DNA from: a virus
Lineage: Duplodnaviria > Heunggongvirae > Uroviricota > Caudoviricetes
DNA length: 37,360 nt
Strand: one strand, 5' to 3'
IMG/VR virus record: IMGVR_UViG_2541047905_000010
Under the pieces are notes generated by a model that saw nothing but the letters and a program-made list of their open reading frames with translations, was not told the DNA's origin and did no database searches. The translations under genes and the position numbers were made by a program. Below are positions 7,555 through 19,358 of the stretch, one piece after another; position 1 is the stretch's first letter; each line of letters begins with the position of its first letter.

Positions 7555-7935
7555 TCAGTCAGCCCAACCTGATTTCGAGTTTATTTGGGTTTCTGACATT
7601 GTGTATTTCTTAATCGTGTCATCGTTAAAAAGAATAGTAAGTTCTTTTTTCGTACCGTTCGTTCCATTATGGAATAATCCATAGAATGGAATAAAAGTGG
7701 TGCCATTAACTTTTACTTTTGCAAAGGCGTACTTCCAGATCTCGTTTCCACTGTCAGTATATGAAACAGCATCAGGAGAACCAAAGTAAGATTTAACCTC
7801 ATTCTTGGTTGTTTTACCTTCCTGAAGTTTAGACTGGACACTAATTTCAGTTTCATTTTTGAGTTGCTGGTTGCCTGAAGAAGCACACCCAGCCAATACA
7901 GATGCCATCATGGCAGCGATTAGGATTTTTCTCAT
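7555..7935 (-). CDS. Lipoprotein (signal peptide with LAGC lipobox), BamE/OmlA-like fold suspected; lysogenic-conversion moron
   Basis: MRKILIAAMMASVLAGCASS...; AT-rich codon usage; sits directly downstream of the repressor gene on the same strand and has its own terminator. Confidence 0.8.
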   Translation of the reverse strand: MRKILIAAMMASVLAGCASSGNQQLKNETEISVQSKLQEGKTTKNEVKSYFGSPDAVSYTDSGNEIWKYAFAKVKVNGTTFIPFYGLFHNGTNGTKKELTILFNDDTIKKYTMSETQINSKSGWAD

Positions 7936-13120: not shown

Positions 13121-13624
13121 TTATTGATAGTGTTTTATGTTCAGATAATGCCCGATGACTTTGTCATGCAGCTCCACCGATTTTGAGAACGACAGCGACT
13201 TCCGTCCCAGCCGTGCCAGGTGCTGCCTCAGATTCAGGTTATGCCGCTCAATTCGCTGCGTATATCGCTTGCTGATTACGTGCAGCTTTCCCTTCAGGCG
13301 GGATTCATACAGCGGCCAGCCATCCGTCATCCATATCACCACGTCAAAGGGTGACAGCAGGCTCATAAGACGCCCCAGCGTCGCCATAGTGCGTTCACCG
13401 AATACGTGCGCAACAACCGTCTTCCGGAGCCTGTCATACGCGTAAAACAGCCAGCGCTGGCGCGATTTAGCCCCGACATAGCCCCACTGTTCGTCCATTT
13501 CCGCGCAGACGATGACGTCACTGCCCGGCTGTATGCGCGAGGTTACCGACTGCGGCCTGAGTTTTTTAAGTGACGTAAAATCGTGTTGAGGCCAACGCCC
13601 ATAATGCGGGCTGTTGCCCGGCAT
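13121..13624 (-). CDS. insB: IS1 transposase InsB (expressed as InsAB' by -1 frameshift)
   Basis: 167-aa ORF matching IS1 InsB from memory ([58 protein letters not shown]...). Confidence 0.93.
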
Positions 13625-13818
13625 CCAACGCCATTCATGGCCATATCAATGATTTTCTGGTGCGTACCGGGTTGAGAAGCGGTGTAAGTGAACTGCAGTT
13701 GCCATGTTTTACGGCAGTGAGAGCAGAGATAGCGCTGATGTCCGGCGGTGCTTTTGCCGTTACGCACCACCCCGTCAGTAGCTGAACAGGAGGGACAGCT
13801 GATAGAAACAGAAGCCAC
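13543..13818 (-). CDS. insA: IS1 InsA (transposition inhibitor / N-terminal part of InsAB')
   Basis: 91-aa [45 protein letters not shown]... Confidence 0.93.
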
Positions 13819-15634: not shown

Positions 15635-16018
15635 ATGCGTGATATTCAGATGGTTCTTGAGCGTTGGGGAGCGTGGGCGGCTAATAATCATGAAGATGTG
15701 ACCTGGTCGTCCATTGCCGCCGGTTTTAAGGGATTAATTACTTCAAAAGTAAAATCTCGCCCGCAATGTTGTGACGATGACGCTATGATCATTTGCGGGT
15801 GCATGGCCCGTCTGAAAAAGAACAACAGCGATTTGCACGATTTATTAGTAGATTATTATGTAGTCGGTATGACATTCATGTCACTGGCAGGTAAGCATTG
15901 CTGCTCTGATGGTTATATCGGGAAAAGGTTACAGAAGGCTGAGGGCATAATTGAAGGGATGTTAATGGCATTAGATATCCAGTTAGAGATGGATATCGTT
16001 GTTAATAACTCTAATTAA
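15635..16018 (+). CDS. Q: Late-gene antiterminator Q (DLP12 QuuD-like, 127 aa from ATG)
   Basis: Position between rusA and the lysis genes; cysteine-rich ([16 protein letters not shown]); track ORF begins at an upstream TTG. Confidence 0.8.
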
Positions 16019-16039
16019 TATGCCAATTGTTTACTAAAA

Positions 16040-16207
16040 ATTATTAAAAATGGGGCGTTGAGACGCCCCCAAAAATAAAGGGTAATATATAACAGAAGGT
16101 TTATATAGTTAGAAGCAAGGTTGTGCTTCTAAAGGAAGTGGCTTGAGGGAGCCACTTATATGTTGGGGAGGCAACGCCTCCCGCAACATATCTTTTTCGT
16201 AATCAGA
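16040..16207 (-). ncRNA. Candidate small RNA / structured 3'UTR downstream of the porin gene (IpeX-like position)
   Basis: Minus-strand RNA folds into consecutive hairpins (GCGGGAGGCGUUGCCUCCC; GUGGCUCCCUCAAGCCAC; GAAGCACAACCUUGCUUC) ending in GGGGCGUCUCAACGCCCC + AUUUUUAAUAAUUUUU. Confidence 0.3.
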
Positions 16208-17290
16208 TTAGAACTGGTAAACCAGACCTACAGCGACGATGTCGTCGGTATCAATATCAGCTGTTTTGGTAAACTTACTATCGTCAATTAAGTTGATTTT
16301 GTAATCAACAAAAGTGGACATGTTTTTATTAAAGTAGTAAGTAGCACCGACATCGACATACTTGACTAAGTCTCGGTCACCATGAACACCAAGGTCTTTA
16401 CCTTTTGACTGAAGGTAAGCAACAGATGGGCGCAGACCGAAGTCAAACTGATATTGTGCTACTGCTTCAAAGTTTTGTGCTTTGTTTGCAATATGGTTAT
16501 TACCAAAAACGGTCATATTCTGAGTTTCAGAATATGTGGTAGCCAGATAGATATTGTTCGCATCATATTTCAGGCCTGCAGCCCATACTTCCGCATTTTT
16601 GCCGGAGGCATTGAATTTGCTCTTACCATAGGCGACCTGACCGTCAGTGCGATCTGATTTAGCATAGGTTGCACCCACGCCGAATCCTTCATACTCATAA
16701 GTAGTGGAGAAACCGAAACCATCACCATTGGCTTCAGTTACGTCAGTGCGGTCATTTTTACCCTGATACTGAGCAGCAAAGTTCAGGCCATCGACCAGAC
16801 CAAAGAAGTCGTTGTTACGATAAGTTGCAACACCAGTAGTGCGACCAGTCATGAACACATCTGTTTGGGTCCAGGTATCACCACCGAATTCTGGCAGAAC
16901 GTCAGTCCACGCACCGATGTCGTATGCTACACCGTAGTTACGGCCGTAATCGATTGAGCCGTAATCACCAAATTTCAGGCCTGCAAATGCAAGACGGGTT
17001 TTGTCTTTGGAAGAACCTTGAGATTCAGCGCGGTTGCCTTTGAATTCATATTCCCACTGACCGAAACCAGTCAGTTGATCGTTGATTTGGGTTTCACCTT
17101 TGAAGCCAAGACGGGCATAAGTAGTATCACCATCATCTGCATCATTAGAGGAGAAGTAGTGCTTAGCATTAACTTTCCCGTACAGATCCAGCTTGTTACT
17201 GTCTTTATTATAAATTTCAGCTGCCTGAGCAGACATCGCCATCAGTACTGATGCAGCTACAGCAGAAATTGCCACTGTTAATTTTTTCAT
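16208..17290 (-). CDS. nmpC: Outer-membrane general porin, NmpC/Lc (OmpC/OmpF/PhoE family), intact; lysogenic-conversion moron
   Basis: 360 aa from [23 protein letters not shown] (signal peptide) to C-terminal ...VAVGLVYQF; track ORF adds 20 spurious N-terminal codons. Confidence 0.95.
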
Positions 17291-17717
17291 CGTGAGCCCT
17301 TTTTTTGAACTATTATTAAAAAATGATGTCACTGCGCGATAAATATTCATCTAATCAATGTGATTATTTCAAGATGTAAGTTTTGGTTTCTCGTTTGATT
17401 TGTGAAGTAGATCTCTATTTTTATCTGAACTTTTTTCTATCGAATCCTATTCATGGCTCTTGGCTGAATAAAAATAAATCTATTAGCCAATTTATATTAA
17501 TGGCTGTTATTTATAAGTGCTCTATAATTTGAAGGTTCAATTTAAATCGGCTAAAAATAACGCTGGAAATTATTTGTTGGTTATTTGTTGAGATTTGCTT
17601 ATGTATTTGTAGTGGTGTTTTCAATACTCGGTAGCATTCTCGCAAATATCATTTAGTGGTTTACGTACGTAAAAAATTGGTTATGCTGTTAAGAGTGGTT
17701 ACTTCGTCACACAGCTT

Positions 17718-17750
17718 AAACCCGCCGTCGAGCGGGTTTTTCCATTTTTT
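17718..17750 (+). terminator. Intrinsic terminator upstream of the lysis cassette (candidate tR')
   Basis: aaacccgc-cgtcga-gcgggttt followed by ttccatttttt on the plus strand, 113 bp before the holin start. Confidence 0.5.
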
Positions 17751-17862
17751 GAGTCTCGATATTAGCTGATAACCCAATACCTGAGTTATTCACTGACTCC
17801 GAGTCTGTTACGTTTCGTAGTATTCCCTCAATTTACACCCGCTTTGTCTGCGAGGTGGGGTT

Positions 17863-18078
17863 ATGAAATCCATGGATAAGTTAACAACGGGTGTCGCCTA
17901 TGGCACCTCAGCAGGTAGTGCCGGGTACTGGTTTTTACAGCTGCTAGATAAAGTCACGCCCTCACAGTGGGCGGCAATTGGAGTGCTGGGTAGCCTGGTA
18001 TTTGGCCTGCTGACGTACCTGACAAACCTTTATTTCAAGATTAAAGAAGATAAGCGCAAGGCTGCGAGAGGTGAATAA
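17863..18078 (+). CDS. S: Holin, phage-21 S-type pinholin with dual start (MKSM)
   Basis: 71 aa; Met1-Lys-Ser-Met4 dual-start motif; two transmembrane segments; C-terminal [13 protein letters not shown]. Confidence 0.9.
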
Positions 18079-19064: not shown

Positions 19065-19358
19065 TTATTGTGAGCAATACACACGCGCTTCCAGCGGAGT
19101 ATAAATGCCTAAAGTAATAAAACCGAGAAATCCATTTACGAATGTTTGCTGGGTTTCTGTTTTAACAACATTTTCTGCGCCGCCACAAATTTTGGCTGCA
19201 TCAACAGTTTTCTCCTGTCCAATTCCCGAAACGAAGAAATGATGGGTGATGGTTTCCTTTGGTGTTACTGCTGTCGGTTTGTTTCCAACAGTAAACGTCT
19301 GTTGAGCACATCCTGTAATAAGCATTGCCAGAGCGGCAGAAAACAACATTTTTTTCAT
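19065..19358 (-). CDS. bor: Bor lipoprotein (serum-resistance factor), 97 aa
   Basis: MKKMLFSAALAMLITGCAQQTFTV...EARVYCSQ matches lambda Bor from memory; track ORF has a 16-codon spurious extension. Confidence 0.92.
   Translation of the reverse strand: MKKMLFSAALAMLITGCAQQTFTVGNKPTAVTPKETITHHFFVSGIGQEKTVDAAKICGGAENVVKTETQQTFVNGFLGFITLGIYTPLEARVYCSQ

Follow-up and report, generated by a model that had tools for sequence, protein, structure and literature searches.

The region at about 16000-17650 of the window, a stretch of 37,360 nt, is very probably an intact lc/nmpC-ipeX lysogenic-conversion module of the type found in the lambdoid phages PA-2 and DLP12. The module would lie between the Q gene and the target of Q, the late promoter pR', and would be transcribed leftward from a host-type promoter of its own. 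Its transcript is predicted to encode a general-diffusion porin, and the structured 3' UTR of this transcript, about 166 nt in length, would be the IpeX RNA. A single-stranded linker within IpeX is predicted to pair with ompC across its Shine-Dalgarno region, and more poorly with ompF, so that every porin transcript would also carry a repressor of the host major porins, and the lysogen would exchange OmpC/OmpF for the phage porin. This would be textbook lysogenic conversion, in which a phage porin replaces the host major porins and thereby changes both outer-membrane permeability and the set of receptors that other phages can use.

The window is a lambdoid prophage adjoining ybhC (the lambda attachment region) and contains int, xis, exo, bet, gam, the repressor, the replication genes, the nin region, Q, and the lysis, terminase, head and tail genes. 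The porin gene sits between Q and the lysis genes S, R and Rz, on the opposite strand. Q and the holin gene are annotated as quuD and essD, respectively, in E. coli genomes with identical sequence, and the Q protein was 77% identical to that of 933W and 85% identical to that of PhiR40_1. The holin gene S (P21 holin S family) is followed by the lysozyme gene R, by Rz, and then by a bor/iss-like lipoprotein gene. At the tail end, the J tail-tip protein of strain VR50 was found to diverge from the window within the last 3 kb, with a C-terminus 56% identical to lambda J. The genes that frame and make up the porin locus are as follows.

15635-16018, plus strand: Q antiterminator gene of the QuuD type, 127 aa (Pfam Phage_antitermQ, PF06530, E 3.5e-53)
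16208-17290, minus strand: intact porin gene of the Lc/NmpC type, 360 aa (open reading frame, Pfam match, and identity to Lc/NmpC)
17222-17290, minus strand: part of the porin gene coding for the signal peptide (read from the translation)
17863-18078, plus strand: holin gene S of the phage 21 type (essD), the first late gene (Phage_holin_2_1, E 2e-35)

The start codon of the porin gene was set to the ATG at 17290, in line with the annotation of lc in J02580; the open reading frame as listed extends back to an ATG at 17350. In a Pfam search, residues 29-360 matched positions 1-337 of the 337-position Porin_1 profile (PF00267) with an E value of 9.5e-151, and the signal peptide, the PEFGGD motif of loop 3 (the constriction loop), and the C-terminal VYQF were all present in the translation. 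The best solved relatives were OmpC, Omp36, OmpK37, OmpK36, and PhoE (E of about 1e-133 to 1e-136), with OmpF also close, and the protein is, as judged from its sequence, a general bacterial porin of the OmpC/OmpF/PhoE family. Comparison with PA-2 Lc and with the rejoined K-12 NmpC gave 330 identical residues among 360 aligned (91.7%) in each case, and these two reference proteins were 98.9% identical to one another. The full-length profile match and this level of identity bear out the original prediction of a complete NmpC/Lc-type porin on the minus strand.

The differences between the porin and Lc/NmpC were clustered in five short patches, presumably surface loops, together with two small indels. 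At the DNA level, 143 of the 1,083 positions of the coding sequence differed from PA-2, compared with none of 189 in the 3' flank and 21 of 572 in the upstream region. Such uneven divergence across the porin module amounts to the kind of mosaic that surface-exposed proteins typically show, and the only departure from the module as described elsewhere is an ordinary loop-variant porin allele.

The segment between the stop codons of Q and the porin gene (16019-16207) was identical to K-12 DLP12 and PA-2 at all 189 bases, which confirms the suggestion that the 3' flank of the porin occupies the position of ipeX in DLP12. IpeX has been reported to be 167 nt long and to be made from the phage porin promoter within the porin transcript and then processed (PMC12197685), and OmpC and OmpF are lowered by it (PMC12197685; PMC5069750; PMC3333887). 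The corresponding elements in the window are listed below.

16045-16210, minus strand: IpeX region (166 nt), the 3' UTR of the porin mRNA, reaching from the stop codon through the last base of the terminator U-run
16158-16191, minus strand: hairpin 1, 15 bp with one bulge (fold)
16136-16157, minus strand: hairpin 2, 8 bp (fold)
16109-16132, minus strand: hairpin 3, 9 bp (fold)
16072-16106, minus strand: linker, conserved and for the most part unpaired, with complementarity to the translation initiation region of ompC; putative IpeX seed (duplex prediction)
16052-16069, minus strand: stem-loop of the intrinsic terminator for the porin/IpeX transcript, with AUUUUUA after it at 16045-16051 (terminator scan)

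The three hairpins and the terminator that had been predicted 3' of the porin gene were thus recovered by the fold and by the terminator scan. The minimum free energy of the minus-strand RNA of 16019-16210 was -65.1 kcal/mol, compared with -34.5 +/- 3.8 kcal/mol for dinucleotide shuffles (z = -8.0; none of 200 shuffles was as stable), and the consensus fold of an alignment of 11 variants contained the same three hairpins and terminator. Among these variants, variable columns were fewer in stems (9 of 78) than in unpaired positions (27 of 89; Fisher p = 0.004), and all seven pairs of the terminator stem were invariant. The changes within stems were mostly G-U compatible, as in hairpin 3, where A-U to G-U changes in relatives retain the pairs; hairpin 1 contained one compensatory change, from C-G to U-A, in E. 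albertii. With identities of 87-100% among the variants, covariation contributes little evidence for the hairpins beyond this one compensatory pair, and the support is to be read as modest. The linker was unchanged in 7 of the 10 E. coli variants, carried one substitution in each of the other three, and carried two in E. albertii. The hairpins and the terminator would most likely stabilise the 3' fragment.

Pairing of the linker with porin mRNAs was predicted for the unpaired linker only; duplexes computed with full-length IpeX against 170-nt targets were unrealistic whole-molecule duplexes and were discarded. Against the K-12 ompC leader (-32 to -2), from which the leader of the window's own host may differ, the linker gave -26.7 kcal/mol, compared with -11.4 +/- 2.8 kcal/mol for shuffled sequences, none of which was as good in 1000 trials. 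The duplex is built of three helices with lengths of 3, 15, and 9 bp (27 pairs, one of them G-U), extends over ompC positions -31 to -3, and covers the GAGGG Shine-Dalgarno sequence. The values were -18.8 kcal/mol for ompF (shuffle p = 0.028) and -11.4 kcal/mol for ompA (shuffle p = 0.63), and the predicted order of pairing, ompC > ompF > ompA, agrees with the published target specificity (PMC5069750). On the strength of this complementarity and of the literature, IpeX would most likely act by occluding the Shine-Dalgarno sequence and so blocking the ribosome-binding site of ompC, and more weakly that of ompF; according to a review, its effect may not rest on complementarity alone (PMC12197685). 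An altered porin profile in the lysogen, as originally proposed, is the published behaviour of the module (PMC12197685; PMC5069750) and is consistent with how strongly the 3' RNA complements the ompC leader.

Alternatively, the function of the 3' hairpins could be confined to termination and mRNA stabilisation where the Q and porin transcripts converge, with no role in trans. The outer hairpins are indeed terminator-like on opposite strands: the stem at 16052-16069 on the minus strand, and, on the plus strand, the copy of the hairpin at 16158-16191, which has a folding energy of -21.3 kcal/mol, is followed by CTTTTTCG at 16192-16199 (T5), and looks like a terminator for Q-sense transcripts. 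A search of Rfam 15 yielded no relevant match in the region, either at the gathering threshold or at E <= 10, and Rfam appears to hold no IpeX family. Against this interpretation, conservation of the linker nearly matches that of the stems, the predicted duplex of the linker with the ompC leader comprises 27 bp, and published genetics assign porin repression to the IpeX segment (PMC3333887; PMC12197685; PMC5069750). A purely structural function of the hairpins is therefore considered very unlikely; the terminator or stabiliser role and the trans-acting role are compatible and not mutually exclusive.

Upstream of the porin gene, the region 17291-17862 has a GC content of 34.6%, compared with 51.4% for the window, and within it the GC content is 29.3% at 17291-17655 and 44% at 17656-17862. 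The description of this interval as an AT-rich upstream region of 570 bp thus holds for its composition but not for its unity: approximately 365 bp are leader and regulatory sequence of the porin gene, and the remainder comprises pR'-qut-tR' and the leader of S. In the DLP12 remnant of Trh52, which is devoid of the late cassette and the lysis genes, homology to the porin module extends to about 17625 and is then lost, and homology to 933W begins at about 17659; the right limit of the porin module was therefore placed at about 17625-17655. The regulatory features on the porin side of this limit are the following.

17291-17655, minus strand: AT-rich leader and regulatory region of the porin gene (GC content and limits of homology)
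17356-17371, minus strand: candidate core of the porin promoter, with an extended -10 element TGaAATAAT at 17363-17371 and a candidate start G at 17356 (sequence scan)
17398-17418, minus strand: CRP site ATTTGTGAAGTAGATCTCTAT (misc_binding feature of PA-2 lc in J02580, mapped over)

The bases from -199 to -1 before the porin start codon were 100% identical to the K-12 nmpC promoter region, within which deletion analysis and 5' RACE have located an active sigma-70 promoter, PnmpC, that starts at a G (PMC11677980). The candidate start G at 17356 lies seven bases downstream of the extended -10 element and would leave a 5' UTR of 66 nt; it is a plausible start for the porin transcript. The TGTGA half-site of the CRP site was invariant in 11 relatives. 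The built-in sigma-70 scan returned no promoter in 15900-18000, and it was judged too strict to be informative here because pR' was also missed.

In the lysogen that carries this window, the module is presumably expressed. The contrary view is that the porin gene is intact but quiescent under ordinary conditions, owing to repression by OmpR, IHF, MprA, and possibly H-NS acting on the AT-rich DNA or to dependence on CRP, and that the porin profile is essentially unchanged; the low GC content of the upstream region (29%) is in keeping with it. Intact nmpC is reportedly quiescent in E. coli B under standard conditions, as Prilipov et al. are said to have observed in 1998; PA-2 lysogens, on the other hand, make Lc as a major protein. 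Regulation of PnmpC itself can be cited on both sides, as it is repressed by OmpR, IHF, and MprA and depends on activation by Crp, whereas the K-12 promoter, identical to that of the window, gives a transcript detectable by 5' RACE and drives expression of the IS5 transposase (PMC11677980). Quiescence of the porin gene is accordingly regarded as rather unlikely, and expression of the module remains the preferred reading.

Beyond the right limit of the porin module lies the late promoter cassette, the placement of which rests on homology to 933W.

17660-17687, plus strand: late promoter pR', TTTACG-N16-TATGCT (aligned with the annotated pR' of 933W and 24B)
17688-17717, plus strand: initial transcribed region with the qut/pause element GTTAAGAGTGGTTACTTCGTCACACAG (near-invariance across phages)
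17701-17708, plus strand: qut ('qut' feature of 933W, mapped over)
17718-17745, plus strand: tR', the intrinsic terminator of the short pR' transcript (terminator scan; alignment of the 933W terminator at 17721-17743)

The sequence at 17659-17741 matched the stretch that directly follows Q in many Stx phages, among them 933W and 24B, in which pR', qut, and the terminator are annotated. The cassette was invariant in nine relatives with lysis genes, and its initial transcribed region was nearly invariant in the window, 933W, PhiR40_1, and SfII, with differing flanks. A weak match to the Rfam Trp_leader family at 17623-17745 was dismissed, as it corresponds to the tR' hairpin. By this homology, the pR'-qut-tR' cassette at 17660-17745 is situated to the right of the porin gene and its promoter and is directed away from the porin. 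Q-modified transcription would consequently start at about 17694 and run rightward into S, never crossing the porin gene.

This arrangement overturns the claim that the porin is read antisense by late transcription, since the porin gene lies upstream of pR'. It also contradicts its assignment to the slot of the stx genes: cargo of a late operon of the stx type lies downstream of pR'/tR' in the same orientation, as stx does in 933W, and the porin gene is located between Q and pR', to the left of the promoter and on the opposite strand. The idea behind both claims, that the porin belongs to the Q-dependent late unit like stx and is read antisense, so that porin expression and lytic growth interfere, draws on the position of the gene, which is flanked by the coding sequences of Q and S and is oriented against both. 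In addition, early transcripts from pR that read through past Q could enter the porin gene, with one terminator-like hairpin (16158-16199) present on the plus strand, and only such readthrough could read the porin antisense. The idea is nevertheless extremely improbable, given the location of the porin and its promoter to the left of the invariant cassette, the position of stx downstream of the cassette in 933W, and the organisation of SfII and PhiR40_1. In these two phages the homologous cassette precedes the lysis genes (SfII) or downstream forward-strand genes (PhiR40_1), and other reverse-oriented genes are found to its left.

A further proposal is that the gap between Q and pR' is a recurrent, insulated slot for reverse-oriented conversion genes and that the porin/IpeX transcript acts as a cis-antisense RNA on stray Q transcripts. 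The terminators lie at opposite ends of the intergenic segment, and therefore the 3' UTRs of the porin/IpeX and Q mRNAs would overlap convergently by about 150 nt. If true, cis-antisense pairing (e.g., with cleavage of the duplex by RNase III) would dampen Q and help to silence the late genes. We consider this proposal highly improbable.

The upstream region had also been said to contain short direct repeats, and one was found at the following position.

17570-17590, no strand assigned: direct repeat TTATTTGTTG-g-TTATTTGTTG with units of 10 bp (sequence)

The repeat is real, but its frequency is near the chance level and it is not conserved: when the region was simulated with a first-order Markov model, about 4% of the runs contained a repeat of such length and spacing (P of about 0.04), and K-12, PA-2, and most other relatives have a different first copy, with the second copy conserved. 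Its distance is 280-300 bp from the porin start and 70-90 bp from the -35 element of pR', on the upstream side in both cases; the latter position is the wrong one for a Q-binding element, and the repeat was rejected as such. The direct-repeat binding site of Q21 could not be transferred to the window, because the Q protein of the window is only distantly related to the solved Q21 (E 1e-6). The repeat is probably without a function of its own.

The Lc/NmpC porin and IpeX module is already known, with descriptions for PA-2 and DLP12 that date back to the 1980s and 2006. The lc locus of PA-2 (J02580) shares with the window the gene order R, S, lc on the opposite strand, and Q, the identical 189-bp 3' flank, an upstream region 96% identical (21 differences in 572), the same signal peptide and barrel core, and the CRP site. 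It differs from the window in its allele, by about 8% of the protein residues and the two small indels. In DLP12 of K-12, quuD, ipeX, the nmpC-essD intergenic region, and essD are 99-100% identical to the window. There, however, nmpC is split by IS5 near its 3' end, so that the reading frame is parted from ipeX, whereas in the window the gene is intact and contiguous with ipeX; moreover, DLP12 is a remnant at argU, whereas the prophage of the window adjoins ybhC and carries int through the tail genes.

The late cassettes of 933W, 24B, and H-19B resemble that of the window in having a homologous promoter, initial transcribed region, and terminator, in addition to a related Q. In 933W there is overlap between pR' and the end of Q, and tRNAs and stx form a cargo that lies downstream in sense, whereas in the window Q and pR' are set 1.65 kb apart by reverse-oriented cargo and the interval from tR' to S is free of insertions. 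The antisense RNAs MicF and MicC repress porin translation by imperfect pairing across the ribosome-binding site and take part in a reciprocal porin switch. IpeX resembles them in that its predicted duplex with a porin mRNA is also imperfect and spans the ribosome-binding site, and differs in being the 3' UTR of a phage-borne porin mRNA, whereas MicF and MicC are transcribed separately from chromosomal genes.

Among 80 porin loci (one genome per species), the IpeX flank was present in E. coli and E. albertii only. The chromosomal ompD-type loci of Salmonella, Citrobacter, and Enterobacter showed no homology to the flank and therefore could not be used for covariation. What the window contributes is an intact porin, coordinates for IpeX, the location of the anti-ompC segment, and a late promoter to the right of the porin, which corrects the antisense idea. 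At 89-100% identity, the IpeX flank was found in 2,510 genomes among the 5,426 complete ones of E. coli; it was also found in 36 phage records, and the gene order from Q to the lysozyme gene, with all or nearly all of the 2.5-kb query matched, in 2,396 of the 5,426 genomes and in 36 phage records. Being well known and carried by nearly half of the complete E. coli genomes, the module is an ordinary one.

The porin coding sequence (16208-17290, minus strand) was found to differ from that of phage PA-2 at 13% of its bases, and the adjoining 189-bp 3' flank (16019-16207) was identical in the two. This mosaic of divergent coding sequence and identical flank suggests that recombination or diversifying selection acted on the patches of porin protein difference, which we infer to be surface loops. 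A partial copy of the module was located in E. coli O84:H7 Trh52 (sequence L088).

L088 2201-4000: DLP12 remnant comprising only the porin, the ipeX flank and approximately 330 bp of upstream DNA

The remnant is bordered by ybcM on one side and yedK on the other. It contains neither Q nor lysis genes, which suggests that the porin module was kept on its own in this strain.

In PhiR40_1 and SfII, phages of the same Q/pR' family, unrelated genes in reverse orientation also separate the pR' cassette from Q (or from the left flank).

L100 990-1583: unrelated genes, reverse-oriented, left of the pR' cassette of PhiR40_1
L101 1-1577: unrelated genes, reverse-oriented, left of the pR' cassette of SfII

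The gap left of pR' seems to house cargo recurrently; it is a different slot from that of stx, which lies downstream of tR'.

Within the pR' initial transcribed region, one element had been assigned a different function in the 1986 PA-2 record.

17694-17714: second annotated 'CRP site' of that record, AGTGGTTACTTCGTCACACAG

Because the AGTGGTTACTTCGTCACACAG block is nearly invariant among Q-related phages, it more likely belongs to qut than binds CRP. In the stretch from tR' to the start codon of S, one 16-17-bp segment (CTGCTTTTTTGCGATA-like) is missing from the window (at approximately 17828-17829), K-12, and F467, and is present in ABU83972, ETEC2265, War, NDM1, A5, RM11911, and PA-2.

At the other end of the module, the 3' ends of Q and the porin gene converge.

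16158-16199, plus strand: terminator-like element, consisting of hairpin 1 of the IpeX region followed by CTTTTTCG

This element resembles an intrinsic terminator that would end transcription in the Q sense, in which case the 3' UTRs of Q and the porin would overlap convergently by approximately 150 nt.

Two genes assigned to lipoprotein families lie elsewhere in the prophage.

19065-19358, minus strand: Bor/Iss-family lipoprotein gene (Pfam Lambda_Bor), after Rz and on the opposite strand
7555-7935, minus strand (9055-9435 of the relative L005): 'SEN1984 family lipoprotein' in the L005 annotation, between the repressor and kil

The former adds a second lysogenic-conversion gene to the prophage; in the identical prophage of VR50 it carries the annotation Iss (increased-serum-survival protein). 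The latter occupies the position held by N in lambda, and no N-like antiterminator is listed between the repressor and kil in the L005 annotation, in which ren is a pseudogene.

13121-13818: IS1 copy, with insA/insB ORFs on the minus strand

This copy is absent from otherwise identical prophages of other E. coli genomes, to which the window aligned in two pieces. It is inserted in the stretch that separates the nin genes from the replication genes.
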